A stretch of 63,297 nucleotides of DNA, counting the filler, from Reclinomonas americana ATCC 50394 (taxonomy: Eukaryota): assembly GCA_048213135.1 (NCBI GenBank). It is 9 parts of 7 records of this genome, joined end to end, with 100 filler letters (N's around TTAATTAATTAA, not from the genome) between each part and the next. Parts side by side here need not be neighbours in the genome. Positions count along the whole stretch, not along the records: positions 1 to 23,760 come from PS015916.1; positions 23,861 to 31,427 come from PS015917.1; positions 31,528 to 39,588 come from PS015918.1; positions 39,689 to 43,317 come from PS015918.1; positions 43,418 to 46,988 come from PS015919.1; positions 47,089 to 53,402 come from PS015919.1; positions 53,503 to 57,567 come from AFZH01016128.1; positions 57,668 to 60,469 come from AFZH01016132.1; 1 more part is not named here. One strand, written 5' to 3'. The translations under genes were made by a program, and so were the position numbers. Positions 1 to 63,297 of this stretch are shown piece after piece (positions within the stretch are counted from its first letter, which is position 1; every line of letters starts with the position of its first letter). A model generated the notes under the pieces. The model was given only the letters and a program-made list of their open reading frames with translations. It was not told the DNA's origin and made no database searches.

Positions 1-3000
1 AGTACTTGGTGGCGTTGCTGAAGCACGCGCGACGACCGTAGTGACCCGGCTCAATCTCCTGAGCGGTGAACATGGCACGCGCAAACTCGACAAACACCAC
101 GACCCAGCCGGCCGACACCACCACCAGGGTCGAGGTGAGCAAAGCAGCACCGAGACCCGTGGAGGGGACCAGCTCATTGGCCTGCACACAGAGGGGCATA
201 TGAGATACTGAAGAAACGACACATTGTTTGCTTGACGAGTGAAACGCACCTTGATGAGGACGCCAAAGAAGAGAATGACCGACAGGTTGATCCACGCCAG
301 CAGTTGCACGTAGTGGTTGACCTGCTGCTTGTACGGGCGACGCTCGGCGTGACCAATGGCAGTGACCGCCACCACACCGAAAGCAGCTGCGCGAATATAA
401 AGTGAGACACACACAGAGACAAGGGAGTGGACCTTTAGAGAAGTAAAGCACACACCAGCAATCTGAGCCACACTGTTGGCGCGATAGGCCAGCAAGAATG
501 CAGCGAGAACAGCCTGTACCAATAGAATGTGAGATCTCTTGCCGATGCACTTCTCCATCACACGCCAACACACCTTGACAGCCAGATCGACCACACCCCA
601 CCACTCACGCTCAAAGCGGTAATCCAGATGCAACACGCTGTGCAGGTCATACACCGCCTCCCACTCCTTCAGGAGCTGGGCGACCTCCTCGCGAGTCGTC
701 TCCTTCTCCGTGCCAGTCGAGTACAGGTCACGCAGCGGGCGACGAGCCAGCGCCGACGCCTCCGACGTGTCCATCTTGTCGGGCACAGCCTCGACAGCAA
801 CAGGCGACGTAATGGCGCTCAAGCGACGGCTCTGTGTGTGGGGGGGATATGAGAAGACGGGAGAAAAATGGAAAGAGCTGTACGCAAAACGCACCGCGCC
901 GCGAATGTTCTCGTCACCCTGCGACAGCTCGTCGACAGAACCAAGGTCGTCGTCGGCGTCGAGCGTGTGCACATTCTGCTGCGCGCGACGAAGGTCGTCG
1001 AGCAGCTGAGCAGCCGCAAGGCGCTCGTCAATCGGCAACAGCTTGATAAAGCTCGGCAGCGAGTCCTCGTCGACCTCATCGAGTCCCTGCTTGGCCAGCT
1101 GCTTGCGCCTGGTGGAGGGGAACGGGAAAAGGGTGATGTTTAGAAGATGATTATGAGAGAAAGAGATACACCTCCCTTCCACTTTCCCACTTTTCGGAGA
1201 CAGAGGGGAGAAGGAAAGTAAAATCTGTCTTTCCTCTGTGCGACTTTCTCTCTCCTCTGGACTCGCAGACAAAGCATGGCTACTTGCTCCTTCTCTATTC
1301 GTATCAAAAATAAAACAGCTTTCACGGGCGGCGTGTAACTTTCCCACTCTTCCACTTGCCTACTCTTTCATGCCTACTCTTCCGTGCCTACTCTTCCACT
1401 TTCCCACTCTTCCACTTGCCGACTTGCCTGCTCTTCCCCCTTCTCCCTCTCTTCCCCTTCTCCTCATCTCTTCCCCTTCTACCCTCTCCTCCCCCTTCTC
1501 CCTCTCCTCCCCCTTCTCCTTCTCCTCCCCCTTNNNNNNNNNNNNNNNNNNNNNNNNNNNNNNNNNNNNNNNNNNNNNNNNNNNNNNNNNNNNNNNNNNN
1601 NNNNNNNNNNNNNNNNNNNNNNNNNNNNNNNNNNNNNNNNNNNNNNNNNNNNNNNNNNNNNNNNNNNNNNNNNNNNNNNNNNNNNNNNNNNNNNNNNNNN
1701 NNNNNNNNNNNNNNNNNNNNNNNNNNNNNNNNNNNNNNNNNNNNNNNNNNNNNNNNNNNNNNNNNNNNNNNNNNNNNNNNNNNNNNNNNNNNNNNNNNNN
1801 NNNNNNNNNNNNNNNNNNNNNNNNNNNNNNNNNNNNNNNNNNNNNNNNNNNNNNNNNNNNNNNNNNNNNNNNNNNNNNNNNNNNNNNNNNNNNNNNNNNN
1901 NNNNNNNNNNNNNNNNNNNNNNNNNNNNNNNNNNNNNNNNNNNNNNNNNNNNNNNNNNNNNNNNNNNNNNNNNNNNNNNNNNNNNNNNNNNNNNNNNNNN
2001 NNNNNNNNNNNNNNNNNNNNNNNNNNNNNNNNNNNNNNNNNNNNNNNNNNNNNNNNNNNNNNNNNNNNNNNNNNNNNNNNNNNNNNNNNNNNNNNNNNNN
2101 NNNNNNNNNNNNNNNNNNNNNNNNNNNNNNNNNNNNNNNNNNNNNNNNNNNNNNNNNNNNNNNNNNNNNNNNNNNNNNNNNNNNNNNNNNNNNNNNNNNN
2201 NNNNNNNNNNNNNNNNNNNNNNNNNNNNNNNNNNNNNNNNNNNNNNNNNNNNNNNNNNNNNNNNNNNNNNNNNNNNNNNNNNNNNNNNNNNNNNNNNNNN
2301 NNNNNNNNNNNNNNNNNNNNCTCCCTCTCTTCCCCCCTTCTCCTCATTTCTTCCCCCTTTCCCCCCCCCATGCACTCACTTGCCAAGACGAATGGCCGTC
2401 TCACGCCACACAGCCGTCTGATGCAGAGCATCGCGGAAGCGGCGGCGAGCCGGGCCAGAGCGGAAGAGCAGCACGTACAACACCGCCGCCGGGAAACCGA
2501 CGGTGAAGCCGGCCAACATAATGGCGACGAATGGCGAGGCCACAATCCACCGCGCGTCGTAGCACTGCACGGCGAGATCGGCGCGCAGGAACGACGTGCC
2601 GTTCGACAGCGACTGGCACTGGAAGAACTGGAACAGCGGCACCGACACACCCGGGTACAGCAGGAAGCACGCTGCACGACCACAGGTAAGAAGAGAGAAA
2701 GTCGGCAAATGTTGTGCGTGACATCGAGACGCAACTCCAAAACATGCGCTCCAGGTACAACTTCAGGCGCTTGCGTCGCTCACCCTGTGCATCGACAGAC
2801 ACGGTGCGCACGAGGCCCTCGGACTCGGCATTGCTGCCAATCTGTATGCAAAAGAAGATGAGCATCAAGTCGGCCTTATCGGTGGACACAATGAGGGTGG
2901 GTGACGCACAAACTGGAACTCGTGATCCTGCGACTTGTTGTCGCTGCGCTTGCGGTACACCGTCACAAAGTACTGCAGCGTCAACAGACCGAGCAGTGTG

Positions 3001-6000
3001 CCGAGCACCAGCGGGTAGGCCGTCAGGCGGGCATAGAAGCCGGTGCTGCCGGGGAAGGTGCACTCCATGAACGCTGAAGCGCGCAGGAACTCGAGATTCA
3101 TCCAGCCCCACAGCGGCTCGAGCACCTCCAGCTGCTTCGGCCACTCGAGCAGGTACGAGTTGATCACCGCCAACAGTTGCACAATGCCCACCATGACTCG
3201 CAGGTTGGCCAGCACAGTGTTGTTGCGCACAAAGTAGAAGATGCCAAAGATGGCCACCACGCCCTGCAATGGCAAGAAAGAGGTGAGAAACTGCCTCTCA
3301 GACCACAAAATGATCTATATGACAAACATCTCCTCACCAACAGGGTCATGGCCAGAGTCACACCACGCACGGCGGCCGACGGGCATTCTGTACAGATGAA
3401 CAGTGAGCATTCCCAAAAGAACAAGCTTGGTCACCAAGCAGACGCAACGCTTGCAAGTGTTGCCAGAGAGCATGAATCCGCTGGCACAAGTGGCGCAACC
3501 GCGACCAGTAAAGCCAGTGGCGCAAGGAGCTGTAGAGGCACGCACAAGGTGAGTATGAAAATAAGCATCATCATCCTGTGCCGACATAACACACGCAACT
3601 CTCTTTGCGACCCGTGCACGCGCCACGCAGCGGGCACGACAGGAACTCGGTCGAGTACGGCGCAGTCTGCCAAAAACCCGGCTCAGCGCCGAGCAGGTTG
3701 CCCTCAGAGCACATGGCATTGATCGGGCACGGCTGGCATGAGAGGTGCGACGGGCTTGTCTCCACCACCACACCCTTGCAGGGCGCGCACGTCACCACGC
3801 CATCGGCCGACTGTGAGAACGTGCCATCGGGGCAAGCAGCCAGACGGGCGCTCAGCGGCAACGTCACCGCCGGCACCGCCGACGAGCGCACCAGCAGGTT
3901 GAACGACAGCGCAGAGGTCTGCGACGTGCCGACAGACACGTTGCTGAAGCACACGCGACCCTGGCTGGCCTGCGCAGCCACGCTTCCGCTAATGACTGGC
4001 GGGGCGACGACAGTGGCAGCGGCCGCAGCAGCTCGCACGCGCTGGCTCGACGTGTCGGTGCTGTTGGTGCTGCCGGCAAGCGAGTCATCAATCGGGACCA
4101 CCGACGACGAGTCCACCGAGATGGACATGAACGAGGAACTGTCGCCGACAATTTGCTGCAGGGAAGAAACAAGGGCAATGAGTGACAAGAAAGAAGAGAG
4201 AGACACAACAAGAGAGGGAGAAAACCGCAACGTTGCCCAGCTGATCGGTGAGCAGCAGGCAGAACTGCGGCAACTGGCTGCCCGGGAACGTGAGCAGCGA
4301 CAGCGGCGCCGAGGCGTCCACAATCAGACGCGACGGCTTGGAGGCCATGTCGAGACCAATCACACTAAAGTTGCCACCAAAGACATTGTTGTCCATGCGC
4401 GGCTTGACTGAGCTCGGCCAGTACACGGCACCGCCCGACACGGAGGCCGAGTTGTTGTTGAACGTCGAGCCCGTGACGGAGCCAATGGCGCTGTCGCGCA
4501 CGTTCGGATCGACGCTGGTGCCGGCCGAGGCCTGGCGCGGCGACGACGAGGAGGCCAGCGCGTTGACGGTGAACGTCGACACCTGCAGGCTGGCGTCTTC
4601 GTTGAGCAGCAGAGCACCACCGCGCTGCGCCGAGTTGCTGGTGAAGATCGAGTCCTGGATGCTGTAGGTGAACTCCTCCGGAGTCGACAGGCCGACACCA
4701 AGGTACACCGCACCACCGACGCCGCCGCTGGCCGAGTTCTGGTCAAATGTCGAGCCCACAATGCTGACCGTGGCACCCTGCACGCCGGGGCGCGCCGGCT
4801 CCAGCACGTGAATGGCACCACCGTTGCCGGTGGCCGAGTTCAGCGAGAAAGCACCGTTGCTGATGCGCAGGTCCAAGCAGCTGGCGCACGCCACGGCGCC
4901 ACCAAACGCCGCAGAGCCGTGATCGAACGACGCGCGGTTCACCAAAAAGGCAGTGTCGCGACCAACGTACACCGCACCACCAGCGCCGTCGGCACCGGCC
5001 GTGTTGCTGGTGAACGTGGGGGCGGTGTTGAGGCGGAGCGAGCTGTTGTCGTCGGCATAAATGGCGCCGCCAGAACCGGTCGGATCGGAAGCCGAGTTCT
5101 TGTCAAACGTCGACGAGGCAACGCTAACTGACGAACGGAGCATGAAAATGGCACCGCCACCCTCGCCCGTCGCCACATTGTTGCTGAAAACCGCATCGGT
5201 AATCGTGCCGGTCGTGTCCTCGAGGTCCACTGTGTGTGTGCAGAGAAAAGGTGGGTGAGTGAGAGTTGAGAGAGAGAGAGAGAGGATGCGTGGGAGTGAC
5301 GCAACATGCGCCACCACGGCTGCCGTGGTTGCCGGTGAAGAGGGTGCCGTCGGCAATCTGAATGGCCGCAAAGCGACCACGGATGGCCGTCTCCAGATTG
5401 TTGGTGAACTGAGAGCTGGCCAAGTTGGCCGCACCACCCATCACCAATACCGCCACTCGCGGCAGGCTGTCAAACGTGCAGTGCGTAAAGCTGGCGGTCG
5501 AGCTCGGCCCGTTCACCACCACAGTCGCCGCCACCGAAGTCTCCGCCACCGACTCCACAAATGTACTCGAGTCGAGGGCGAGCTTGGCATTGGCCAAGTA
5601 AACTGTCACAAGGGAGTGAGTGACTAAGAGAGAGAGAGACGACGCAAAGCAACACGAGGGAGCGCAACTGGACAGTGCCTCAGTGCGGGCGGCAGAGCTG
5701 CCCGAGAAGGTGAGGCCTTGGCCCGAAAGATTGCTGCCGGCGAGGAACAGAGCACCGCCACCAGTGGCCGACGGGTTGGCAATCGAGTTGGTCAAGAAGC
5801 GCGTGCGCGCAATCTATTTGTTGCACGGAGATTTCTATTAGGGCCTTGTGCAAGGATAAAGCAGCGCAAAAAGTGTGGCACACTCACCGAGAACGGCTTG
5901 GTGGCGTCGCCAATCAAGGCCACGGCACCACCCGACTGACCAGCCGAGTTCGACTGGAACTCACTGTCGGTGATCGAAATCGCGATCGTGTCGCGGAACA

Positions 6001-8878
6001 GAGTGGTCTTGGCCGACACGGCACCGCCCGACAAGCCGGCCCTGATATGTTGAGGTGAGCATCACCACCACACAACAATACGATTCTCACTGAAAACGCA
6101 ACGAATTGCCAGTCAGCTTCACGCTCTGCAGCAGCAAGCTGGCGTCCTTGAGCGCCAGTGCGCCACCGAGACCCGCCGTGGCCGAGTTGCCCTCCAGCGA
6201 AGCATTCTGGATGGTGACCGATGCCGGTTGCGCCGACGCCTCAGCCTCCACGGCAATGGCTCCACCGTCGCCGTCGGCCTGGTTGCCGGTGAAATCGCTC
6301 AACGCCAGCAGACTGGCGCTGCCCATCCAAATGGCACCACCAGCACGACCGGCCTTGTTCATCGTAAAGCTCGACACGCTGTCGACGGTGAGCGAGGTGG
6401 CGTTGAAGTTGCCGACCAAGCTGCCACGCAGCACCAGCGCACCGCCAACACCGGCGGCCGAGTTGCCAGAGAACAGAGTGCCATGGAACTGCGCTCAACG
6501 GGAGTGAGCAGGCTGGCATGGCAACACAAATGTGCGCTTCGAGTTCAAACGCAACGTCGTATGCGGCCTGCACCTCGAGGTACAGAGCACCACCGTCGAG
6601 CTGGGCGTGGTTGTTCGTCACACGAGTGTCGGTGAGGCGAGCGCCCTTAATGGCGACCAAGTTGCCCTCCAGACGCGGCAAGTACACGGCACCACCACGG
6701 AAGGCGGTGTTGCCATTCAGGTTGCTGCGATCGAGACGAATCTCGACACCGCCCGTCAGAGCCACGGCACCACCTCCGCCACCAGCGACATTGCTGTCCA
6801 TGGTGGACTCGCTGATGCGCACCGAGTTGAACGCAGTCGACTGCGTGCGGCTCACACTGCCACCATGCACGTGCACGGCACCACCATTCACGCCAGCACT
6901 GTCCCGAGAACAACGAAGGTCAGTGAAAAATGCAGACAAGGGCGCGTCATCAGCAAAGTGCACACACCGGTTGCTGAGGAAGGTGCTCGAGTGAATCCAC
7001 AGCACCCAGTCGGCGTCGGTGGGTGTGCGCATGCTAATGGCGCCACCGCTCGAGGCCGTGCTGCTGCAGCTAGAGAACTTGCTGCTCACAATCTTGACAG
7101 GGGACTGTCGGCGAGCGCTTTGCGGAGTCACTGAGGATGGAGAGAGGACAATGAGTGAGCAGTGGTGGTGATGATGGGTTTCAGGAATGACAATCCCGCT
7201 CACCGACAATGCGAAGCGCTCCGGGTCCGTCAATGGCCTCCAGGTTGGTAAAGGTGCTCTCGGTGATGGCCAGCGGTGAATCGAGGCACACCGAGGTGGG
7301 GCAATTGTCGACCACACTAATGGCGGGACCGTCCGAGTTCTGCACCGTCCAGTACGCAATCGAGATCGACTCGTTGACGTCGGTGGAGCACGGGCGCGGG
7401 CTCGAGGAGAACGAGCGCACAGACACCAGAGCCTTGGAGTAACCGAGAGCTGACGGACGTCGGTTCGGCAGCGAGAAGCTCGTCCACTGCAGAAAGGAAA
7501 AGAGACAGTGAGTGACACACGAAGCACCTTACAGAGAATACCCCTTTCGCACACAGCACTCACCGACACGCGATCAATGGTCACGCCTGGCGCGGCTGTG
7601 CACAGCGCCACAGCGTCGATCATTTCCACGACTGTGTTGTTGAAGTTGTTGTTGAACTGGACGCCCGTCATGTTCAAGTACAGCTGCGTTCCACGAATCG
7701 TGCCGTCAAACTCCTCATTGCCGAGCGACGGGTCTGTGGCAACAATAAAAAGTGAGTCGCGAAAGAAAACAGCCGTTGGTGGAGGGCGGCAACGCAACAA
7801 GTGGTGGTATCGCGATCCATGCCCGACACGGTGACCGTGTCGAGGGTGACAGCGCTATTCGTGCTGCGCGCCAGCTGCGTGCCGCCGACGACCGTCGACT
7901 TGGAGATCGTGAGCGTCGCTCCGTTGGCACCCTGCCAGAAGAGTGGCTTGCGATCGCGCAGCAGTACGCGCGAGTTGATAATGTTCACCGAGCCACCCTG
8001 CAGCGCACGCACGGCAGCCGTGGTGGAGAGGGAGCCACTGACGGCCGGATTGAACGTGATCTCATCCGAGTCGAAACGGGCAGAGCCGGCGCCGAGCACC
8101 TCAGCGACGCCAGCATCGGGACTGGTGCCGACAACCCAGCCCGACTCGAAAATGAGCGACGAGTCCGTGTCCACCGAGAAGGCCGTCGTACCGGCGCACG
8201 GGTACACTGCAGCGCTGTTCACTTGCAGGAACGCGTTCTGTGATTTGGGGGGGCAGGCGATGAGACAGGGGACTTGTTTGAAGTGGGATGGAAGCCTCGC
8301 TACTGACCTCGAGGAAAAACATGGATCCAATCGAGGAAGGAGTGGAAGCCGACGGTGGGCGGCATCGCACAATTGCGTAATTGACCACTCCGGGTGTAGT
8401 GTCCCACGGGTCGATCGACACACAGGCGTTGCGGACGCGCACTGCTGTCGACACATCATTCGGCAGCTGCTTGGCCACGCGAATGGCGGCCGTGGTGCAG
8501 CCGAGCACGCTTACTTGATTGACGGCCTTGGCCACTGTCAAAAACGGCAAATCGGTGGAGCCGACGCCCGTCGTGTCGTTGCCGTCTTGCGCATGCACGT
8601 AGAGCACTGCACATAAAGAGAAGGGAAGAATGACGTGTGTGAGCTCGACAACTAGACGATGCGGGGTCAGTGCGGGTGTTGGGGGACGCACCGCAGGCCT
8701 TGGAAAAGTCGCACGTGGGTGCAGCGGCCGTCGCATGGACTATAATTGGCGAGTGTGTGAGGGGTGAAAATGAGCAAGCATACGGGGGCGGAGGAGGAGG
8801 ATGAGTACACGCACCGAGAGCGACCAGCAGCAGCACCGTCGCCAGCGCGAGTGCAAAATGGCGGTGCGTTAATGACAT
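1..8878 (-). CDS. Large secreted-ectodomain, multi-pass membrane protein: signal peptide, DUF1565-like start, Chlamydia Pmp-like GGA(I/L/V)/FxxN beta-helix repeats, Cys-rich region, TRP-like C-terminal transmembrane bundle; multi-exon, 3' end outside the window
   Basis: ATG at 8878 gives MSLTHRHFALALATVLLLVALG. Later exons give YVHAQDGNDTTGVGSTDLPFLTVAKAV and many repeats such as FSNNVATGEGGGAI, FDKNSASDPTGSGGAI and FTGNQADGDGGAI. Then CPDGTFS..CAPC..CQPCPINAMC and CATGFTGRGCATC, followed by hydrophobic exons (FLRADLAVQCY, RRPYKQQVNHYVQLLAW). A gap at 1534-2320 lies inside. Confidence 0.8.
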
Positions 8879-9426: not shown

Positions 9427-16141
<6,715 letters not shown>

Positions 16142-16197
16142 TTACACAAACACTGTCTTCTTTTATAATTTGCGAAACAATATTATCTCTACCACAT

Positions 16198-16557
16198 TCA
16201 CCAGTCCTCGCACGCCACCTCCTTCTTCATGCGCTCGGTGCGCATCTTTTTCTTCTCCAGCTCGTGTCGCACGGGATCTTGCCGAGTCGTGGGCATATCT
16301 GTGTGTGTGCGCGGTGGTGAGTAGCTGGTGCTGTTGGAGGTTCGCTCGACGACACGGGGACGCAACAGAATCGATCGACTCCCTTGTCCACGATACTCAT
16401 CACGCACGCTGCAGTGAAGAATGGACACAGGCTGCGCACACCGGCGTCAATCACTCGTGTGCGAGCAATGGCATCGCCGGAGATCTCGGGTCGCCGTCGA
16501 ATGGTGGGATACTCGGTAGAGTCGCGTCGCCGATTGCGTTTCTTCTTGTCGCCGGTC

Positions 16558-16595
<38 letters not shown>

Positions 16596-23760: not shown

Positions 23761-23860
23761 NNNNNNNNNNNNNNNNNNNNNNNNNNNNNNNNNNNNNNNN
23801 NNNNTTAATTAATTAANNNNNNNNNNNNNNNNNNNNNNNNNNNNNNNNNNNNNNNNNNNN
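23761..23860. other. Assembly spacer N44-TTAATTAATTAA-N44 (also at 31428, 39589, 43318, 46989, 53403, 57568, 60470)
   Basis: Identical 100-nt blocks with stops in all six frames. The FBPase, PLAC8 and BPI genes read across three of them, so they behave as ordered gaps of unknown size. Confidence 0.95.
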
Positions 23861-30660: not shown

Positions 30661-30697
<37 letters not shown>

Positions 30698-31297: not shown

Positions 31298-31527
31298 CTA
31301 TTGTGCACACCAAAAAAGATGGATTCCATCACAAATCAATCAATCAGTGATTGATGATCACAATGCACACCACAATGAACACACAAAACACGCAGCAGAC
31401 ACACAGATGCACGAGCGCGCACTCCGCNNNNNNNNNNNNNNNNNNNNNNNNNNNNNNNNNNNNNNNNNNNNTTAATTAATTAANNNNNNNNNNNNNNNNN
31501 NNNNNNNNNNNNNNNNNNNNNNNNNNN

Positions 31528-32789: not shown

Positions 32790-32835
<46 letters not shown>

Positions 32836-49600: not shown

Positions 49601-52600
49601 GTGCTCTACTGCGTTATGAGCAAACTCCTTGATTGAAAACCTGACTCGTGCCTCGGCAGATCAACCTGGTGCTCCAGTTCTCGACCGACTCAAATGGCCG
49701 ACTGCAGATGGCCATCGCATCGTGCGACAGTTCCGTTTCCCTGTCTCTCACCTCACTCCTTTCTTCCCGCCTGCCCACCCCTCTTCACTCCCCGCAGTGC
49801 ACATTGGCAATCTTGACATCCACCTGCACGGTGGCGACTCATCGTTCTACGAGGTGCAGCCGTTTCCCTCACCGCCCTACCTTCAAGAGCGACTGACTTG
49901 CACACCACACAGGCCATTGCTAAGCTGTTCAAGCCAACCATCGAGAACGTCGTCCAGGGCCAAGTGTGCAGCAACCTGACCGATCAGGTCAACTCGTTGG
50001 CCTCCACCTTTTTGTCCAAGGTCAGCAGATCTCTCTTCCTCCTCAGCGCACCCGCCTTCTCACCCCCTGTCGCAGATCCCGGTGGCAGTCCCCCTCGTCC
50101 CCAATGTCGAAATCGACTACGCGCTCGTCAAGCAAGACGCGCTGCATGCGCTGGCCGGCACGTACTGGCCGCACAGCTGCATCTATTCTGGCTCCAGCGA
50201 GCCACTGGTGCAGCAGCAGTTTGGCGACATTGGCCTGCCAAACTACACCAGGTGACAGCGAAAGAATTACTCTCATTCGCGCCCTTCCACTCAACACCAT
50301 CCCTTTTTCCCTTTCCACCACAGCTTTGACATTTCGGGTTATTACCGCGCCCCTGTGACTGGCTCGTACCAATTTTCCATCTCCTACAACCAGTGCGGTC
50401 AGCTGGATTTCAACGGGCAGAGCGTTGCGTCGCATGATAAAGAGAGCTAGGGGTGCGAATTTGTTACTGAACTGATGTTGCGCACACAGGTCGGTGGACT
50501 GGAGATGCACAACCCAGGCATGTGCTGGGTGCGCCACCGCACCGACACCACCAGCCCGCAGACGCTGCAGGGCAACCAGTTGCGGTCCTCGTGCAGCTGT
50601 TGTTGGAAGGTCGAAATCTTACTCTCCTCGCAGGTTCTATCCCATTCGCTTGCGATACCAGGCCGGCTGTGGTGGCGGCACCATTCACCTCAACGTGTGC
50701 GTGAACGGCTCGTGCTCGCCCGTCACTCCGCTCAGCGTGGCCACCAAGGTGGCGTATGGTGAGTGTGGGAGGGCCGGGAGGGAAGAGAAAAGAGAGGAGG
50801 AACCAGATTTGACATGAGAGAGATCGGTCAAGGTTTGAGGATGGAGGAGGCACTGATTGCACAGACACACCGATCAAGTGTTGAGGGTGGAGGAGAGACA
50901 TTGATTGCACGCACACTCCTATCAAGGGTTGAGGATGGAGATGCTGGTCACACGCACACATCAATCAAGGGTTGAGAGTGGAGGAGAGACGCTGGTCACA
51001 CGCACACACCGATCAAGGGTCGACGGTAGTGAGAGACACTGGTCACGCGCACGCACCGATCAAGGGTTGAGGGTTGAGGAGAGACGCAGATCTCTCGAGA
51101 ATGGAGGAGACGCTTGCTCTCCGCCATGCTCTCTCCCGTCCTCTCCCCCAAATTCTCCCCCATCCTTTCTCTTCCCCTCGCTCTTCGCCTTGCTCTTCCC
51201 CCTTGCTCTCCCCCCCTTGCTTTCCCCATTGCTTTCCCCCATTGCTTTCCCCATTGCTTTCCCCATTGCTTTCCTCATTGCTTTCCCCATTGCTTTCCCC
51301 CGATGGTCTCCCCCATTGCTCTCCCCCATGCTCTCCCCCGATGGTCTCCCCCATTGCTCTCCCCCATTGCTTGCCCCCTCTCCCCTATGCTCTCCCCCAT
51401 CCTCTCCCCCTTTCCCCCTTTCCCTCTTTCCCCCTTTCCCCCCATCCTCTCCTTCATCCTCTCCCCCATCCTCTCTCCCATCCTCTCTCCCATCCTCTCT
51501 CCCATTCATTCCCCTTCCCCTTTCCCACCTTCCCTTCCCCCTTCCCCCTTCTGCCCTTCCCCCTTCTCTTCCCCCTTATCCTTCCCCTTTCTTTGCGCAG
51601 ACTTCCCCTTCGTCGTCGAAGACTCCTACATCGAAACGGAGAGCCACATGGAGATCTACGCCCTTCCCTCACGCCCCGACTGCCCCGCCCCCACGCACCA
51701 GCTCCCCGACGCCCCCTCCACCACCGAGCCGATGATGGAGATTGCCCTCGACGACTATGTTGCGCGCCATCTCCGCCTTACCTTCCGGTCTCTTTCATCG
51801 CTCACCCTCCTCCGCAGATCATCAACTCGGCCGGTTTTGCATTCAACCAGGCGCAATACCTCGAGTACCTGTTCACCCCCGACAACCTGCCCTCCGACAT
51901 TCCCATCAAGCTCAACACCACCTGGTGGCGCTACCTCATTCCCGGCCTCTATCACCAATTCCCCAACGCCGCAATGGAGGTGCTGGTGTACCAGGACAGC
52001 ACGCCCTCGGCCTCCATCTCACCCAGTGGACTCTCCGCCTCCATGCACTCGATGGTCAACGTGTCGGTGCTGGCCGGCTCGCCCGAGCCACGACCGACGG
52101 CGGCGCTGCAGTTCGAGTTGCTGCTGGCCGCCGCCGGCATCTCGGTCGCCGTGCAGAATGACGCGCTGACGGCACACATTGGTGCAGTGACTTTTGATTT
52201 GTCGTTGCGCTGGTCCCTTGTGCCGGCCTTCAACGTTAGCGTGTTGGATGCGCTGCTCGACAGCTTGCTGGAGCATGTCGCCGTGCCGTTGCGTTTTTTT
52301 GTGAGGACAGGAGTCGACGCCCAACAAGAGCTCATGGATGGTGTGATGCAGATTCGCCAATGCGGCGCTGGCGCGCGGTATTCCGCTGCACGCGGTCAAC
52401 GGCCTCAATCTCGTCAACCCGCAAGTGCAGTTCCAAAACGGATACCTGAACATCCAGACCGACTTTTCGTATCAACCATCGGCGGCACTCGCCGCCAAAC
52501 GGCAGCTGCGAGAAGGCGAACGAGTGCTGGTGCTCGACGACGACGACGACAATGATCGTGACGATAATGTCGTTGGAGTGCTGCTGCGCGGAGCAGACGA

Positions 52601-53295: not shown

Positions 53296-53799
53296 GTGGA
53301 GCGAGTGAGAAAAGGGATACAAATAACAAACAAGTGTCTGCTCCCTCCTCTTCGACCTCTCCTCGCTCAGCGTGCTCTCCCCTACCGCTCTCTCTCTCTC
53401 TCNNNNNNNNNNNNNNNNNNNNNNNNNNNNNNNNNNNNNNNNNNNNTTAATTAATTAANNNNNNNNNNNNNNNNNNNNNNNNNNNNNNNNNNNNNNNNNN
53501 NNCGCCGATCCATTACACCCCGCCTCGCTGGTAAGCTTGACATGCACACGCACACGCATGTGTACGCACGCACACACACGTTGCAGCGCGATGAGCGAGG
53601 GCGGCGAGAGAGTGCGTTGGCGATGATCGGGATCTTGCACGCACACACACACACGCGCGCGCGCGCGCGCCCTTGCTCACTGCAGGCACGTACGTGAGCA
53701 CGATAGAGATGCAGCACGCGCACACGTACAGGAAGGGGAGGCGAGAGACAACGACATGCAGCAAACGAGTGACACTGATTTGCTTTCCGATTTGTGCAG

Positions 53800-56339
53800 G
53801 CGGTGAGTGTGCTGACGGAGCTCATTGACGAGGCGTGTCGCGAGGTTGCCTTGCAGTGTCACAAGGCGAGTCGGTTAGGCACGCTGGACTCGTCGCCAAC
53901 CGCAGCACCGCTCATGAATGGAGGAAACGACAGTGCAGTTCCGTCAACCCTTGCGCGCACACACTTGACCCTTTTTGTGTCTGTACTCATGACACACACG
54001 CGCGCGCGCTGCGACAGACTGCTGTGTCGTCGATGGAAGTGGAAGATGCCTCCAATGGAGTTGTCTCTGTGGCGGGCGAAGAGGGCGACGACAAAGATGA
54101 CGATGATGATGAAGATGATGATGATGCGGCGGTGTCGCGGCATCGCGCGAACGGTGTTGTCGCGGAGTCGGGTTCGCGTGCGGGCGCGCTGGCAGTGAGC
54201 TATCCGAGTCGGCAGGCGCTGGCCAGGCGGAAGGCGCGAGAGAATGCAGTCAATCGCACGCTGTTGTTGAGGTGTGCTACGCTGTTGCTATCGTCGGCCT
54301 CGCAACTGATTCGCGCGTGACAAGTAAGTGTGTGTGTGCGTGTGCACAGACATCCGCTGGCTGTGTGGCAGCATGAGAATGAAGTGACGACTGCGGCAGC
54401 AGCCGCGGCAGCAGCAGCAGCGGCGGCGGAGGCGGCGGCGACGGCCGCAGCTGCGACTCTTGCTGTGGAAGAGATGCCAGGTGCGGTTGTCGACGAAGCT
54501 TCTGTGGATGTGTTGATGCCGCTGGTGTTGGGACCACCGGCGCCGCCGACACGAGGTCGTCCGAAAGGGCGACCGCGAACTCGTGGTCGTGGCGCTGCAA
54601 ATGTGGCTCAGCCGCGTGGTCGTGGCCGCAAGCGTGGTGGTGCTGCTTCTGGTGGTGGCGCAGGTGGTGGATTGTTTGTCGGTGCCGACATGATGGAAGT
54701 GGCGACCGCAGCCGCGCCCATGGATGGCACGGCGAGTGTGAAACGGAAAAAGGCTGTACAATGGTTGTCGTCTGATGAAGAGTCGGCGAGTGGTGCTGCA
54801 GAAGAGGCCACGTTGCGTTTCCGTTCGTGTGGCGCGCGCAGCGTGTGAAGGCGCTGACATTTGTCTATTGTGTCGTGCAGCAAATCAAACACGGTGACGT
54901 GCCCAGTGTGTAACCGGGCAGTCAGCGCGCTACGCTTTGCGCCGCATCTCGAAAAGTGCTTGGCCGGCGGCGGCCGGCAGTCGAGCCGAAGAGCTGCCGC
55001 GCGGTGAGCACAATAATTACATGGCCCCTTTGCGTGCATTATGTGTGTGTCGCTCATCCATCATGTGACGCAGGTTATCCGAGTTGGCACGTCGCAATCG
55101 GGAGCCATCGCCGACGCTGGATGCAGAAATGATGGCGGTGGTGGACGACGGAGAGTTCATGCTGGAGGATCGCTCCACTCCAGCGCCGCCTCCACCACCA
55201 CCACCAATGCCACCTGCTGCTGCTGCTGCTGCTGTGCGTGCTCGCCCGGCTCGCACCTCGGCGGCGCCACAACGGCAGTACGAGTACGTTGACGACTATG
55301 ATGATGACGAACCGATCTCGTCGTCGCCGGTGGACCCCGACAACGACGACGATGTGGTGGAGGTGGGTGCGTGGCCGTCGTCGATTGCACACCGGCATCG
55401 AGCGCCAGGAATTGTCTCCGCTGTCACCACCACCACCACAACAACGACGACGACGACGACTGCAATGGCAACGTCTGTGGCAGCATCGCCAGCAATGGTG
55501 CCACCTGCGGCCTCTGCGGCTCCTGGGCAGGGACGGAGCATTTTGCGACTGCGAGTCGTGTCGTCTTCGGCGCAAGCAGCGTCGGCAACCGCGCACGACA
55601 ACAGTGACGACGATCTTGACGAGGATGAGGATGAGGACGATGAAGAGGACGACGGCGACGAAGATGAGGACGAGGAAGAGGACGATGGAGGAGATGAGGA
55701 AGTGGACGAAGAGGAAGACGACGATGGCGAGGACGACGGGTATAATGGTGGCGTAGGTGGCGGCGGCGGCAGTGGTGGTGGTGGCGGTGGTGGTGGTGGT
55801 GGTGGCAGTGAGGGTCACAGGAATCGGGGCCACAATGGCAACACCGGGTACGAACAGTACGACGACGAAGAGGAGGAGGATGAGGAGGCGAGCGATGGTG
55901 GCCACCGGAATGGCGGAGGTGGCCACGGAGGGCGTCAGCGACATCACCGACTGTCACATATTATTAACGGAGGAGACGGTCAGTTGATGGTGGCGTCGGT
56001 CGACATTGTGCATGAGAGCGACGGCGAGCGTGGTGAGCTTGCTTCCGATAGGTGTCGCGCTGTCTACCCTGCATCTCACACTTTTCTTTGGTTTTCGCGT
56101 TGCGCAGCCGACAAGTATTATGCGAGGAAGCGTGCACGAGAGGGTCTGTCTGCTTGCCATTGTGTTGCTGATGATGTGTGAGGCTCACAAGCTGTGGCAA
56201 CGTGCGTGCAGATGGCGGTGCGAAGGGAGAAATGGACGACGAGCGGTGGCAGCGGAGGAAAAGGAAGGTGTGCAGGGCGCCCTCGCGCTCTCTCTCGCCA
56301 AACATCATCCGCTACAATGAAACAAGCATTCTACGGTAA
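53800..56339 (+). CDS. SGF11: Sgf11/ATXN7L3-like SAGA deubiquitinase-module subunit, greatly expanded; multi-exon, ends uncertain
   Basis: N-terminal helix LTELIDEACREVALQCHKASRLG. Zinc-finger exon at about 54880-55003 reads VTCPVCNRAVSALRFAPHLEKCLAGGGRQSSRRAAAR, matching the Sgf11 C-x2-C..RFAxHLEKC motif. Confidence 0.85.
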
Positions 56340-57074: not shown

Positions 57075-57144
57075 CTGCACGACACACAAGCAGGGGGTGA
57101 GCGAGGTGGAGACGGGAGGGCAAAAGTAAAAAAAAAAACAAAGA

Positions 57145-57218
57145 TGAGAGCAGCCGGATTCGAACCGACGAATGCTGGAACCTAACTCCAGTGCGTTAAA
57201 CCACTTCGCCACGCTCTC
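57145..57218 (-). tRNA. tRNA with anticodon UAG (Leu by anticodon), 74 nt, short 5-nt variable loop
   Basis: GAGAGCG TG GCG AAGTGGTTTAA CGC A CTGGA GTTAGGT TCCAG CATTC GTCGG TTCGAAT CCGGC TGCTCTC A. Full cloverleaf, A and B boxes, G15-C48, A73, and a downstream T-run Pol III terminator. Confidence 0.93.
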
Positions 57219-57667
57219 AGGCACCAAACAACCAGCGAGACTTTCCCCATGGCTATTCTGCCCTCCACCGCGTAATCTCTTCTCGCTTCCTGTGCACTCA
57301 CGCAGCCTGCTGTCCGCACCAACACCTCTCTCCCCTCTCTCCCACACTTACGCACACGCCTGCGGACGTGCATTTGGACAATCACGTCCGGTTTCTGCGT
57401 CTAAAAAGAATGTGCATGCAGTGTTGCCACGAGAGAGGGCGAGAAGGTGGGAGGGGCGTCGAGGAGAAAGAAAGAAAGAAAGGTAGAAATGCACAATAAG
57501 GGCAATTCTGACACATGAAGGGCGGAACACAGATATCGAGACAAGTCCATTTCTGGGCACACCCAAGNNNNNNNNNNNNNNNNNNNNNNNNNNNNNNNNN
57601 NNNNNNNNNNNTTAATTAATTAANNNNNNNNNNNNNNNNNNNNNNNNNNNNNNNNNNNNNNNNNNNN

Positions 57668-60245
57668 GTTTGACATGTCGCTGGCCGACGACAGGAAGCG
57701 ACGTCGGCCGCCCGAGTACGATCGCCGTCCACTCCGAGCTGTTGTGGCGGTGGCGGTGTCGGCGCCGGTGCTGGCGGCGCCATTCGCATTGTCCTCGGTT
57801 TCCACGGGATATGACAACTCGCGGTGTCTGTCACGCTGACGATCAGAAACGAAACGCGATGAATGCACACGCACGAACATAAAAGACGCAACACTGGCGA
57901 GAACTGCGAGTCCGTATCGTCGTCGTCTGTGGTCTCGTCGCCGAGCTCCGACAAGTCGTGCACCGACGGGAACTGACCCCACGAGCTGTGAATCTTCATG
58001 CGACGGCGGGCGTCGGGCGACATGCATTGCAGCGCCCTGCGCAGACAGTCGTGCAGTGTCCGCTCGATCGCAAATTGTGTTTCCAGATACGAGAACTCTG
58101 CTCCTGCATCACTCAGCAAGCCACGAAAAGATCAAAAGGGGACACGCTTGAAAGTGAGAACGCAACTTGGCCAGGTGTTGCGCTGGCCCACCATGATGTT
58201 GCGTCGAATGTCCTCGACAGTGGGATTGGAGAGGATGTTCAAGTAGTCGCGCAGCATCATCTTGGGCACAATCGTGCAGTCGCCCTCGTACTTTTGCGTG
58301 ATGAGCGGCTGCAGCCATGAGAACACCGACGGCATGAGGTTGTACTCGAACAGCTGCGCAGCAATAGGATCAGTGCCCGCAGAAAACAAACTTGCGTGTG
58401 TGTGCACGCAGTGCGAAGAACCTGCAACAGTCGATGTCTGATCTCGCTGAGCGCCCAGTGTTGTACGCGACCCAAGAACGTGCGTCGTTTTGGCGTGTGC
58501 ATGGCCGACGACGACAGGAACGGAATCACGTGCGGGTTGACTTGCGAGACGACAAAATGCTACACACGGTCATTGTCAGCAGCTAGTGTAGTGTGCTTGT
58601 GCACGCCACACGCAACGTTGACATTGAACAGCTCGCTGAGACGGGCCATGGGCAGGTCGGCCTCCACGGAACCGTCGGCCCAGTGCACCTCTGCGATGCG
58701 CAGTGAGTCGCGAAACAATAAGAGCTGTGTGCGCGCGAACCAAAAAAACAAACCAAGAGAGTGGTGCGGCACGATTTGGCCCTCCTCGTCCTTGGCGTAC
58801 AGCGACACGGGTGCGAACACGCCCGGAATGGCACAGCTGGCCGAGGCGGCACTCCATACCAACACATTGGGTGCGGTGAGATAATTCAGCAAGCACGGCA
58901 TCGAGTGCTTCGAGGTCGGCGACACGGTGATGTTGAGCACACGCCCTGAACGCTCGTACGCCTCACGGAAGGTGTAGTCGCCCACATTGGCACGAATGCA
59001 CTCGGTGAGTTTGTTGACGTCCATGAGCACACCCTACGACGACGGTCAGGAGAGGGAACGCCTTGAGAAGATGGGAAAGGTAAACACCTGCGAGAGCAAG
59101 CGGTGAAGACGCCGGCGAAACGAGCCGGGCTCCAGTCGGCGGAACACGTCCAGCTTCAGCTTGTCGGGCACAAACAAGTCGCCGATCTCACGATCGGATT
59201 TCGTGCAAAACAGCGACGCCACAATGGCACCAGCACTCGAGCCACTCCACACTCGCGGCAGCAGTGCGGCCTCGTACAACGCCTTGACCACTCCCTGCAC
59301 AACACATCAGCCGCCCTTCCGTTTTCCGCACGCACTGGCCACACACTTACCAAATGATACATGCCAAACGACGATCCACCCGACAACAACAACGCCGTGC
59401 ACCCGTACGCATGCGCTGTCTCCCGAAAGAAGGCGATCTTCTGGTGGTGCGTGAACGTCGACCCAAAGTCGCTGACCAGGATCATCTCCAACGCCGAGCA
59501 CACCTGCCACCACACGTGTCACACACTCTCAATCGTCGCCGCCGGAGTTGACCTGCATGAACAGACCTCGCGAACATACTGCTCAATGAGCTGCTTGGAG
59601 CCCACCAGTGCCTTCTCGTGCAACTCGGCACGCCCAATGCCCGCCAGTCCACGAATGAGGCCTGCGCACACCAGTCTGTCACAGAGAGCGAGAGACAGAG
59701 AGAGAAGAGCACAGTCTGCTCACCTGCGCGAAGCTCCCACACCAGTGCCTTTACGTTGCGCATCTTGCGGAGGTGTTGCAATCGCTGGAGAGTGTGCTTG
59801 ATCAGGTTGAAGTCGTACTTGTCGGAGTCGGCGCGAAGCTTCCAGTACGTGTGGCCTGATGAGCACTTCTGAGTGAGTTGTGTGGTGTGCGTGCATGTGT
59901 GTGCTGTGCCCTGTGTGTGCTGTGTGACTTGCCATTCGCGTCATCCAACTGCACAGCAATCGCCTTCCACTCTTCGTAGGTGGCGGCATCCTTCAGTTTG
60001 CTCTGCAACTCGGCGCGTGTGTCGCGAAACAGTCGCCATTCGCCATAGAAGAACTGCATGAGAGAGTGTGAGTGTGAGTGTGTGAGAGAGACGGTGTGTG
60101 TGTGTGTGTGACACAACGCAACAGCAAAGAAGCCAAACACACTGCGAATGATGCGCATGAGCAAGGCGAGTAGGCCGTGCCATAGAACGACTGGAACATG
60201 AAGGACGCGTGTGGCCACTGCACGGGTGCTGCTTGCCACAGACAT
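57668..60245 (-). CDS. Patatin-like triacylglycerol lipase (SDP1/TGL4 family with DUF3336 N-terminus); 3' end in gap
   Basis: ATYEEWKAIAVQLD, YGCTALLLSGGSSFGMYHLGVVKAL, GSSAG nucleophile motif, TFREAYERSGRVLNITVS, LLNYLTAPNVLVWSAASASCA, WADGSVEADLP, FNVNHFVVSQVNPH. Confidence 0.95.
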
Positions 60246-60288
60246 GGCCAGTCACCGCTCTCCTTAGAAGAAGCCGGAGTTGTGTTTA

Positions 60289-60469: not shown

Positions 60470-60569
60470 NNNNNNNNNNNNNNNNNNNNNNNNNNNNNNN
60501 NNNNNNNNNNNNNTTAATTAATTAANNNNNNNNNNNNNNNNNNNNNNNNNNNNNNNNNNNNNNNNNNNN

Positions 60570-63297
60570 GCGCCTGGTACTGCTTCTGCAGCTCCTTGGA
60601 CACGTACTGCGCGACGGCAACACAGTGAGAATCACACACTTTTCATCCCTCTCGCCCTGTCTTGCACTCACCTGCCAGCACTCGTCAATCACAGACTCCT
60701 TGGCCACAATGTTGACCACACCGGCGGCGTTCTCCGACGACATGTTGAACTTGGAAAAGTAATGCTCCACCTCCTCCTTGCGTCGAACGTACGTCACCCA
60801 CAACAGGAGCAGACAGGCCGAGGCGCGCACAGTCTCTGCGCGCAGCTTGACCTCGTGCTCGCCCGGCGACAGCACACTGACCAGCAGGTCATAGCATTGC
60901 TGCCACTGTAGACAATCGAATGAGAACACTGAAACATGCAAAACGGTGCGCGATTCTGGCCCTACAAAACCTCATCCGGTCGAATGTCGTCACTCCCCTC
61001 CTCTGTCGTGCCGTCCACACCACGTCGCAGCCGCATGGCCAGCGCGAAAGCAATGCGTCTCTTGATGAGGATCCATGGCATGCGCTGCGATTCGCGCTGC
61101 TCCATCGCCTCGAACAGGTTCTTCAGCACCACTAGACAGGCCGAGTACTGCTTCTCGCGGAACAGCATGTCGGCCACCGGAATCGCAAACCACGGCAGCA
61201 GCTGGCGATAGCGACTCAGGGTCTCCAGTTGCTGTCGCAGCATCTGCATGAGTTCAGGCATGTCTGTGACGATCTCTAAGTTGGCATCGTTGAGAATGCG
61301 CTCCGGGTGCTTCACAATGCGCTCGCCTGTACCACTCGAGACGTGAGAAATGGTTGCTCTCCCCTCACACACACACATTAGAAAACGCGCTCTCACCCAT
61401 GCGCAGCACGTGATAGTCGCTGAGACGGAGGAAGAACTGGCCGATGCGCGAACACATTGGACTCTCTGTCTCCTCGCCAAACTGGTACGCCTGTACCACC
61501 AACGAATTGAGAAGGAGAGAGACAGAGAGCGAGAGAGAAAAGAGTGGCTGAGAGCCTGACGGTGTACCTCAATGGCGCGCTCGGCCACCAGCTGATACTC
61601 GTTGATCACCCACAACGGGAACAGTACGCGACTGAGGAAGTACGCGCGAGTGGAGTTGTGCTCCTTGATGCCCACCAACTTGCAGCTGTGTGACAATCTC
61701 AGCAAGACTCGAACACAGGTGAGCATGAATTACCGCGGGTGGGTTGTACACACCACTCATCGTAGCAGCGCCAGGCGCTCCAGCGCTCGCCAAAAAGAGC
61801 ATAGTTGGTCATGGCCTCCACAAAGCCACTGACCACGGGGTCCACCACACGCGGGTACGACTGCAGGATGTTGCTGAAGCGCGGTCGATCGCTATCAAAC
61901 ACCTGCTCCATCGAGCGGAAGTGTTTGAGGGCCGTGCGCAGGTCACCAACTGTGCACACGTGCGAATGAGAAGACTGGGGAGGGAACGCAGGTTGACGAC
62001 ATACACACACAAAAACGCAACGCTCAGAGTAGTGCATGACACCGGTGCGGTGGCCGTCGATGAGACGACGTGCGTCGACCGGGCAGTCGAGGCTCCAAAT
62101 GTGTCCCTTCTTTCCCGGATCGAGGAAATCGCCCATGTACTCAACAATGCGCGTCCACACGTCGCACATTTGCCGCAAATGGCCGTCGCGATCCAAGTTC
62201 AGATACACAAACCACAAGTTCGACAGCACGTCATAGTGCGCCTCACGTGGGAAGAATGTCGCCTGCCACCCACGAAAGGTAAGCAACTCCGCGCACACAC
62301 ACACACGCTTCTCATGCCCGCCCGCCACGCAACATTCTCCAGCAAGCGGACCGCGTGGTGCAACACCGACTCGGTCTGCTCGTTGATGATGTTGCAGGCC
62401 AGCAGCGAGGTACTGAGCTGGCACACCAGGTTGAACTCAAACATTTGCATGTCACGATCTGGGCAGGAGGAGTCGAATGAGAAGGCATCGGCGGGCGAGG
62501 GACACCACGAAAACATGCACGCGCACCTTTGAAGCGACACTCGGCCAGCAGCTTCACGGCATTTTCCAGCGTGGAAATGGCCGCCCGCTCCATACTCGAA
62601 TCCACCATGCGCTGCGCGTGATCCTCCATGTAGCCGACGGCCTCGCGCACACTCGAACTCAGCTGTTTGTCTGCTCACAGTGTGTGTGTGTATGAGACAC
62701 AAGTGGTCGGTTGCAAATGATATACGCTCGATGAACGCAACTGTCGGCACGGTCGTCCGGAGCCACATGCATCAACGCATCCATGGTGGCATGGAAGGCA
62801 TGATGGGCAAGCTGATTGACAATGCCCGCCGATACCGAGTCGGTGTCCTCGCTGAGCTCCTTTTCCTTCAGCGGATCGTAGTCCGGCTGCGTGCATGCAG
62901 GTGTGTCAGTGAAGCGCAGCGAGGGCATGACGCGCAGCAGAATGACAGCGAGAGCGCACCGGCAGCAGGCGCTTGAACCAGTCGTAGATGAACTTGTGCG
63001 CCTTGCCACGTCGCGAAGGCATCATCTGATGGTACAGTGCGTACGCCGTCGTGTTGTGGTGGAACTCGTACATTTGCTACTCGTGGAGAGTGTGTGTTAG
63101 CGCACGACCGACGAAGCGAAGACACCGCACACACCAAACAAACCTCCTTGAACGGATACACAGTTCCAGTGTTCTCGACGCCCGACGGATCGCGTTGCAC
63201 CAGAATCTTCTCATCGACCAGGTGCTGCAACATGTTGTAGATTTCCTCCTCGGAGAAGTCCTCAGTGTCCACATGCGTCAGATTGAACACTTGCAGT
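60570..63297 (-). CDS. C-terminal helical/TPR-like part of a probable STAND-class NTPase (soluble adenylate cyclase / AAA_16-like); partial at both ends
   Basis: LQHLVDEKILVQ..YEFHHNTTAYALYHQMMPSRRGKAHKFIYDWF..QLAHHAFHA matches the L..L....ll..Y.F.H....a.Y......R...H..LA.H pattern that follows the P-loop in these proteins. The NTPase domain itself is not in the window. Confidence 0.6.

Follow-up and report, generated by a model that had tools for sequence, protein, structure and literature searches.

How does a spliceosome find the start of an intron where the nucleotides that usually mark it are missing? After GT itself, intron starts are most conserved at two positions, intron position +5 and the last exon base (position -1), both of which are G. 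The question is raised by a stretch of 63,297 nucleotides (nt) from Reclinomonas americana ATCC 50394 (GenBank assembly GCA_048213135.1), which is composed of nine parts of seven records joined end to end and is referred to as the window in the following. This stretch is intron-rich nuclear protist DNA, with about 150 short introns of a median length of about 67 nt. An earlier note on the window had listed 24 introns beginning with GTTGCG and had proposed that they represent a second, rule-governed type of 5′ splice site (donor). We find that GTTGCG, with C at +5 and G at +6, is the commonest donor hexamer of the region, and that its use is ruled by the last base of the exon. In the following, we describe this class and discuss how it might be recognized.

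All 24 positions in that list carry GTTGCG on the given strand, each of them after A, C or T and never after G. The hexamer is also overrepresented, with 76 copies in the window compared to 49.3 +/- 6.7 in dinucleotide shuffles, and 76 or more copies were found in none of 100 shuffles. Introns were called in two ways. Where protein relatives are available, they were fixed by homology, using a spliced protein-to-DNA aligner of our own that allows any GT/GC..AG pair. Twenty-one introns fixed in this manner then served to train a gene finder that combines a 3-periodic Markov coding potential with an acceptor matrix and an intron-length term, and that knows nothing of the donor except 'GT'; 16 of the 21 training introns were recovered exactly. 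A previous finder, which relied on codon usage and GT..AG only, was dropped, as its introns were mostly spurious. In the gene territories on the winning strand, the donor-blind pass returned TGCG as the top 4-mer at +3 to +6 (24 of 130 short introns), an 18.8-fold enrichment over all GT sites (p = 2e-23), and none of these 24 introns has a G at -1. By contrast, none of the 18 short introns that fall on the losing strand, or on a strand left unassigned, has TGCG at these positions.

A refinement of the finder, in which a term for the 4-mer at +3 to +6 was added that is blind to position -1, yielded 150 introns. Of these, 105 form a confident set of winning-strand introns that are 45-100 nt long, end in YAG and carry a YTNAY branch motif. 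GTTGCG starts 28 of the 150 introns, in 10 of the 15 gene territories, and 24 of the 105 confident ones, which bears out its description as a major class. Twenty-one of the 24 listed sites were called as donors, while the other three (16639, 23952 and 40989) were not called but are unrefuted and plausible, two of them (23952 and 40989) lying outside the modelled genes. Seven further GTTGCG donors, all after a non-G base, were found at 5668, 6555, 24150, 24752, 45100, 54812 and 62333, and an eighth is likely at 17286. Removal of these introns also restores the reading frame, as had been claimed: reading through meets a stop or a frameshift in 23 of the 28. Viewed from the side of the hexamer, the 76 copies comprise these 28 donors and eight copies that lie on the sense strand of exons or of regions without a gene model, including 16639, 23952 and 17286; leaving intron interiors aside, about 28 of 36 sense-strand copies thus act as donors. 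Two of the exonic copies appear to remain in the message. At 3499 (minus strand), G/GTTGCGC (here and below, the slash marks the exon-intron boundary or its equivalent) lies in a Cys-rich, EGF-like exon of a PMP-repeat gene and is seemingly unspliced; at 52204 (plus strand), c/GTTGCGC is an unspliced copy within an exon covered by a Pfam BPI match. The hexamer alone is therefore insufficient for splicing.

Could the pattern be a product of intron calling, the sites being unspliced or spliced elsewhere? This would be in keeping with the small number of GTTGCG junctions fixed by homology, which is two, with the manual assignment of territories, and with the undecided cases, namely the three uncalled sites and the in-frame alternatives 45094/45100 and 16627/16639. 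However, the enrichment arises with a model that is blind to the donor and does not extend to the losing strand, an open frame requires 23 of the 28 introns to be removed, and the length, branch motif and acceptor are the same as in homology-fixed introns. Furthermore, two of the predicted boundaries coincide with the start and the end of a Pfam domain match, and the large share of sense-strand copies that act as donors argues in the same direction. We consider an artefact of this kind improbable.

The GTTGCG junctions fixed by homology come from a patatin/DUF3336 lipase gene, in which 20 relatives agree on nine introns, two of them of the GTTGCG class. The first (c/GTTGCGT, 57 nt; 58560-58616, minus strand) is fixed by 20 of 20 relatives as a true GT-AG intron. 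It falls between N and H of the motif N[VI]NHF, which is present in 89 of 120 relatives, so that the junction formerly described as NVN/HF is upheld. Sliding both ends of the intron by one base would yield N-D-F, which is not seen; the conserved N/H junction thus shows that the G of GTTGCG is intronic. The second (a/GTTGCGT; 58104-58166, minus strand) has its donor fixed by 19 of 20 relatives, with the acceptor at either 58104 or 58098. The remaining patatin donors follow G and are varied (GTGAGC, GTCTGT, GTAAGT, GTGTTT, GTTTGT, GTTCTT and one GC-AG); one example is ttg/GTAAGT at 59295-59350 (minus strand), which is supported by 20 of 20 relatives. The GC-AG intron, g/GCAAGT at 59856-59932 (minus strand), is supported by 16 of 20.

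In two other genes, homology fixes further introns. Nine introns of a fructose-1,6-bisphosphatase (FBPase) gene are fixed by the E. coli enzyme. In an alanyl-tRNA synthetase (AlaRS) gene, where the query open reading frame (ORF) was mostly intron and gave weak matches, we used eight full-length relatives, which fix about nine introns, nearly all of them after G; an example of the ordinary class is cag/GTGCGC at 12122-12183 (plus strand; 7 of 8 relatives). For a BPI/LBP-like gene and a TPR gene, protein searches with the ORFs gave no relatives, and their introns consequently rest on modelling, in the case of the BPI-like gene also on Pfam coordinates. Here, the match to LBP_BPI_CETP_C starts at the first base after the intron with donor 51759 and ends just before donor 52288.

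The dependence on the exon end is strict. A G at -1 is found in 0 of 28 GTTGCG donors, compared to 76 of 122 others (Fisher p = 1e-10), and in 0 of 24 compared to 61 of 81 in the confident set (p = 6e-12). From codon-position composition, 9.4 of the 28 would be expected to have a G at this position, with a probability of 9e-6 for none. Split by the base at -1, the donors in the window catalogue thus confirm that GTTGCG is used exclusively after non-G. The same dependence emerges as a spacing rule when the confident set is sorted by the position of G in the intron. Where the last exon base is G, 48 introns have G only at +5 and three only at +6; where it is A, C or T, 31 have G only at +6 and four only at +5 (Fisher p = 1e-15). 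Of these 31 non-G donors with G at +6, 28 have T at +3. Four near variants of the hexamer keep the rule of non-G at -1, T at +3 and G at +6: a/GTTCCGT at 49730-49797 and at 53938-54017 (both plus strand), a/GTTGTGC at 19424-19498 (minus strand) and t/GTTGAGG at 54266-54349 (plus strand), all from the refined catalogue.

The partner class had been described as G/GTGCG, and in this respect the earlier note needs to be corrected. Among the 61 confident exon-G donors, GTGCG accounts for just 13, next to 14 with GTGAG, and the class is better written as a broad AG/GT-(G>T>C>A)-(not G)-G-T. It has A at -2 in 56%; G, T, C and A at +3 in 57, 21, 15 and 7%; C, A, T and G at +4 in 36, 34, 28 and 2%; G at +5 in 82%; and T or C at +6 in 59 or 26%. 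In eukaryotic donors, +3 is commonly A or G, and by comparison the ordinary donors here are unusual, with A rare at +3 (7%) and G nearly absent from +4 (2%) in this catalogue of 61. That GTGCG follows G holds for 9 of the 10 sites originally listed, with 44126 following T, as had been noticed; in the full catalogue, it holds for 16 of 20, so that there are four exceptions rather than one, t/GTGCGT at 2909, 20590 and 44126 and a/GTGCGT at 53612.

It is well established that the base at -1 and those on the intron side of a donor depend on each other, and the compensation between G at -1 and G at +5, with its 'left-handed' and 'right-handed' donors, is its familiar form. One might therefore suppose that donors after non-G simply need a stronger intron half and that GTTGCG is that half. 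The two situations are alike in that non-G donors lean on the intron side, and some of the non-G donors in the window, namely the four GTGCGT sites just named and a/GTGAGT at 18562, have indeed the strongest of the ordinary intron halves. However, GTTGCG is the opposite of a strengthened donor, as it carries the bases that ordinary donors avoid most and scores -1.1 bits against them. What distinguishes it is a change of frame, not an improved match within one frame, and a donor is nearly always in one state or the other. We therefore regard ordinary compensation as very unlikely.

This difference in frame can be quantified with a donor matrix for which the 81 other donors of the confident set were used. 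When GTTGCG sites are read in the normal frame, their -1.1 bits are exceeded by 86% of all GT sites of the window, which number 7733; ordinary donors rarely carry the respective bases (G at +4 in 2%, C at +5 in 7% and G at +6 in 8%). Displaced by one base, with the +1 column omitted from the score, the same sites reach +7.3 bits, compared to 4.5 +/- 3.5 for ordinary donors on the same columns. The statement that the two classes superimpose when the cut is moved by one base thus holds well. The likeness extends beyond the hexamer on both sides. At +7, 79% of the class have T, like ordinary donors at +6. In the exon, the composition of the final position (A 12, C 9, T 7, G 0) is similar to that of the ordinary -2, and the position preceding it is similar to the ordinary -3; the exon-side log-likelihood is -73.0 for the displaced alignment, -80.0 for a codon-position null and -111.3 for the undisplaced alignment.

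The 3′ signals are alike in both donor classes and of the major type. A YTNAY branch motif is present in 24 of 28 GTTGCG introns, at a median of 17 nt before the end, and in 84 of 106 other short introns, at a median of 18 nt. Branch motifs of the class include CTCAC, CTGAC and CTCAT, as in other introns, and its acceptors are CAG in 27 cases and TAG in one. We also considered U12-type introns, which likewise have a strict donor motif on the intron side and do not need a G at the exon end, and rejected them: the donor is GTTGCG instead of RTATCCTT, and in place of a TCCTTAAC-like branch site close to the 3′ end, the introns have the motifs just named, at a distance and with an acceptor that agree with the major class and with the other introns of the window.

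We thus observe two classes of GT-AG donors that exclude each other with respect to the last exon base and that share a constant distance between two Gs. There are thus two marks for an intron start, each with a G five bases upstream of a G-T pair. In the common form, AG/GT-N-N-G-T, the upstream G is the last exon base and the downstream G is +5; in the second form, H/GTTGCG(T), which makes up about one donor in five, they are intron positions +1 and +6. The junction lies before GT in both. For their recognition, we propose a single frame that would bind one base deeper into the intron in the second form. This displaced frame would correspond to a displaced pairing of the RNAs that bind the 5′ splice site, first U1 and then U6, such that the G at +1 replaces the exon G, the T at +3 replaces that at +2, and the G at +6 and T at +7 replace those at +5 and +6. 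It might come into use where a G as the last exon base is incompatible with the encoded protein. Replacing the base at -1 by G would indeed be non-synonymous or create a stop in 25 of 28 GTTGCG introns, but about the same share is expected at random positions, so that coding constraint is consistent with the data without being probative. Overall, we hold the displacement of one recognition frame at non-G exon ends to be nearly an even call, if slightly on the doubtful side.

Several points weigh against a plain displacement. The sample is a single 63-kb window of joined contigs, gene territories and strands were set manually on the basis of scores and branch motifs, and splicing is supported by homology for two GTTGCG sites and by gene modelling for all others. 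The class is also stricter than a displaced ordinary consensus, with G at +4 and C at +5 in about 93%, compared to 57% G and 36% C at the matching ordinary positions, which points to extra specific contacts. Moreover, that G is never found at -1 is no proof of a displacement. By a qualitative argument, few G/GTTGCG sites are expected under any model, because a G at -1 makes the ordinary mode suffice and TGCG then decays. A further point concerns U1. We calculated nearest-neighbor duplexes with ViennaRNA for a standard U1 5′ end, from which the U1 of the host may differ, and without pseudouridines or proteins. With this model, mean duplex energies are -0.7 kcal/mol for GTTGCG donors, -2.7 for random GT sites and -7.0 for exon-G donors; in separating GTTGCG donors from random GT sites, the area under the receiver operating characteristic curve (AUC) is 0.245, worse than chance in any register found. 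By the same arithmetic, H/GTGCGT should bind U1 at least as well as H/GTTGCGT, yet it is about six times rarer after non-G (5 compared to 28).

A plain shift on an ordinary U1 is hence energetically poor, and a variant small nuclear RNA (snRNA) gains weight. Since standard U1 pairs poorly with GUUGCGU, displaced pairing probably needs a non-textbook snRNA 5′ end or the help of a protein. The ordinary class itself gives no sign of an altered U1: when positions 5 and 6 of the guide were varied (16 variants), the standard sequence separated ordinary donors from the background with an AUC of 0.78, compared to a maximum of 0.80.

These energies also speak for a dedicated recognizer, such as a second U1-like snRNA, a guide RNA or a protein with a binding site complementary to GUUGCGU in the normal frame. 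The likeness to a displaced consensus would then be a coincidence or a relic, and the exon-G introns would use ordinary U1. Standard U1 pairs with GTTGCG sites worse than with random GT sites, and the C at +5 cannot pair with positions 5/6 of standard U1. Likewise, the motif is a rigid 6-7-mer, with a degree of conservation that the ordinary class reaches nowhere, and a hypothetical complementary guide separates the class near-perfectly, which it does by design and which speaks for feasibility only. However, no such RNA was seen, the window being free of snRNA genes according to Rfam (searched at the gathering cut-off and at E <= 1, with a tRNA and chance microRNA-like matches as the only hits). 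A dedicated recognizer would also leave three features unexplained: a shift by one base turns the ordinary consensus into the motif, the exon ends in a base resembling the ordinary -2, and the near variants combine G at +6 with T at +3. Finally, leaving -1 unconstrained, it would predict about 9.4 Gs in 28 and would therefore require the same decay argument as the displaced frame. We regard a dedicated recognizer as possible but doubtful. The same tentative standing applies to a related arrangement, in which the major spliceosome would possess two parallel modes of 5′ splice site recognition, with a dedicated or altered U1-type snRNA reading GUUGCGU and U6 following in a geometry extended by one base.

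A different origin would be an introner family, in which a single element with a donor of its own was inserted many times over, which would account for the lack of an exon consensus. In line with this, the spread of the class over genes is uneven (permutation p = 0.005): it makes up 9 of 18 short introns in the fast-evolving PMP-repeat gene, 4 of 11 in the patatin gene, 4 of 14 in the TPR gene and 2 of 2 in the BPI-like gene, but 0 of 12 in both the AlaRS gene and the kinase/WD40 genes. If genes with one or two short introns are set aside, the share is highest in the PMP-repeat gene. Intron phases also appear somewhat flatter (9/13/6 for the GTTGCG class and 40/20/11 for the exon-G class), a difference that is not significant (p = 0.09). 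However, GTTGCG introns do not resemble one another in their bodies more than other introns do, with a mean local alignment score of 7.8 within the class (378 pairs), 7.5 among the others (5565) and 7.6 across classes (2968). This comparison, which had been suggested as a test for an introner origin, thus speaks against it. The top-scoring pairs are CT/CA microsatellites; (CT)n and (CA)n tracts stand just before the acceptor of many introns, for instance 16557-16639, 60054-60122 and 5230-5305 (all minus strand), and high scores between introns are due to these tracts only. Random insertion would, moreover, place a G at -1 in about a third of the cases. Lastly, the intron at 58166 is old, because its position and phase (P0001 residue 510, phase 1) are shared with the distant eukaryotic contigs L041 and L045, where the donor is a/GTAAAT. 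An introner origin thus appears extremely unlikely.

The patatin gene has further intron positions in common with distant contigs, at P0001 residues 88, 163 and 377 (L009), 132 (L006) and 447 besides 510 (L041 and L045); the introns of L009 are tiny, at 38-39 nt. An intron at the position of the 58616 intron was not found in any of the loci aligned (31 of 50 patatin loci).

The individual GTTGCG introns are as follows; where nothing else is said, they were called both in the donor-blind pass and after refinement. The largest group lies on the minus strand in the very large PMP-repeat/beta-helix gene (2376-8878; Chlamydia-PMP repeats by Pfam). It begins with a/GTTGCGT at 2672-2735 (64 nt, phase 1), for which read-through is broken and which has no YTNAY branch motif, and continues with c/GTTGCGT at 3388-3448 (61 nt), a/GTTGCGT at 3530-3599 (70 nt), t/GTTGCGT at 5230-5305 (76 nt), c/GTTGCGT at 6042-6102 (61 nt) and 6489-6555 (67 nt; one of the further introns), and t/GTTGCGT at 7734-7798 (65 nt). 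The intron c/GTTGCGG at 4156-4231 (76 nt) was called after refinement, the donor-blind pass having taken an in-frame GT 6 nt downstream, and the further intron a/GTTGCGC at 5603-5668 (66 nt) is in frame and stop-free and thus not forced by the reading frame.

Also on the minus strand, t/GTTGCGT occurs at 16299-16366 (68 nt). The candidate donor t/GTTGCGT at 16557-16639 (83 nt) competes with the in-frame GT at 16627, 12 nt downstream, which the finder took. At 17223-17286 (64 nt, with the end TTTTTTCCACAG), t/GTTGCGT is a likely further intron; there, the finder took 17271, with a poor AAG acceptor. Another minus-strand intron, a/GTTGCGC at 29961-30038 (78 nt), was called after refinement.

On the plus strand, the candidate donor a/GTTGCGG at 23952-24022 (71 nt) adjoins a contig linker and lies outside the modelled genes. 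It is followed by the further introns a/GTTGCGT at 24150-24213 (64 nt, TPR gene) and a/GTTGCGA at 24752-24826 (75 nt), and by a/GTTGCGT at 24971-25032 (62 nt) and 26152-26226 (75 nt). At the start of the 24971 intron, three copies of GTTGCG fall within 34 nt (24971, 24979 and 24999; 24971-25004), which could serve as tandem alternative donors. A plausible candidate, c/GTTGCGA at 40989-41069 (81 nt), is pyrimidine-rich, ends in CAG and lies outside the modelled genes. In the FBPase gene, the further intron a/GTTGCGT at 45100-45154 (55 nt) was called after refinement and has an in-frame alternative donor at 45094; as the junction falls in a variable stretch, homology does not decide between the two. 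Next come c/GTTGCGT at 50424-50489 (66 nt) and a/GTTGCGG at 50579-50633 (55 nt), the latter called after refinement, where the donor-blind pass took a GT 6 nt downstream. The two introns of the BPI-like gene, t/GTTGCGC at 51759-51817 (59 nt) and c/GTTGCGT at 52288-52351 (64 nt), were called in both passes and coincide with the edges of the Pfam match. The last on this strand is a further intron, c/GTTGCGT at 54812-54880 (69 nt).

Besides the two introns fixed by relatives, the patatin gene contains t/GTTGCGT at 57828-57892 (65 nt, minus strand), called in both passes in a region that the relatives do not cover, and t/GTTGCGT at 60054-60122 (69 nt, minus strand). Finally, c/GTTGCGT at 61950-62021 (72 nt), the further intron t/GTTGCGT at 62263-62333 (71 nt) and a/GTTGCGT at 62671-62741 (71 nt) are found on the minus strand near the end of the window.

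Gene content was derived from Pfam matches of 255 stop-to-stop ORFs of at least 110 amino acids. In addition to the PMP-repeat gene, it includes the genes for AlaRS (9.4-15.4 kb, plus strand), kinase and WD40 proteins (18.5-21.4 kb, minus), ENTH and TPR proteins (23.2-26.7 kb, plus), FBPase (43.4-45.7 kb, plus), a BPI/LBP-like protein (50.9-52.6 kb, plus) and the patatin/DUF3336 lipase (57.7-60.5 kb, minus). The nearest relative of the patatin protein is 67% identical, while oomycetes and various protists reach about 55%; a metagenome scan for patatin relatives yielded 50 loci, with a best identity of 63% over a segment. In the ESM Atlas, the closest clusters that bear a name have a haptophyte label, which is a weak lead. 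A tRNA-Leu gene is located between the patatin gene and its neighbor (57143-57219, minus strand). The region 32001-36000, which has no confident gene model, is strongly biased towards purines in its plus strand (GC skew 0.30, AT skew 0.44). Across the window, G+C ranges from 46 to 61%. N accounts for 2878 positions, and eight identical linkers, each made of 44 N, TTAATTAATTAA and 44 N and providing stops in all six frames, are situated at 23761-23860, 31428-31527, 39589-39688, 43318-43417, 46989-47088, 53403-53502, 57568-57667 and 60470-60569. The window therefore consists of joined contigs, and order and adjacency across linkers are unreliable.

How does this compare to known systems? A shifted register of U1 is reported to have been proven at rare human 5′ splice sites with the help of suppressor U1s. 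As in the window, the consensus there comes one position late, the cut stays at GT and the U1 pairs are moved by one. The human cases, however, are a handful of sites of the type GTTAAGT, whereas the class described here comprises about 19% of donors, with a strict GTTGCGT and an absolute non-G exon end, and is known from sequence alone. Bulged U1 registers have reportedly been described as well. A bulge or asymmetric loop at +3 (or +2) would set +4 to +7 of GTTGCGT on the usual pairing positions of +3 to +6. We considered a generic bulge, with an extra base of any kind at +2/+3 and the exon end still paired, and rejected it: of the 31 donors concerned, 28 have specifically T as the additional base, and G at -1, which would provide an extra pair if bulged, is found in 0 of 28 with 9.4 expected. 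According to Tan et al. (2016; PMC4856993), shifted and bulged registers are documented for human U1, and validated non-canonical registers make up 1.5% of 201,541 human donors, compared to about one in five donors in the window. Such registers are seen as a marginal means of rescue. A search for a GTTGCG or GUUGCG splice motif, and for haptophyte splice sites, in a library with few subscription papers gave nothing relevant among the papers listed. None of the known comparators, neither the human registers nor the dependence between -1 and +5, has a commonest donor hexamer with C at +5 and G at +6 that is selected by the last exon base.

For gene annotation, the consequence would be immediate: predictors that use a single donor matrix would rate GTTGCG sites as non-donors, at -1.1 bits, and would mis-annotate about one intron in five. 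If the spliceosome does work in two parallel modes, about a fifth of the introns would be freed from the need for G at +5 and at the exon end, and the codon at the end of the exon would pick the mode. Should the pattern prove to be genome-wide and visible in RNA, Reclinomonas would offer a natural system with thousands of sites for studying how the spliceosome sets the cut relative to its guide RNAs, in which one can ask whether U1 or U6 can evolve an alternative reading frame, and it would show how coding constraint at exon ends shapes the signals for splicing.

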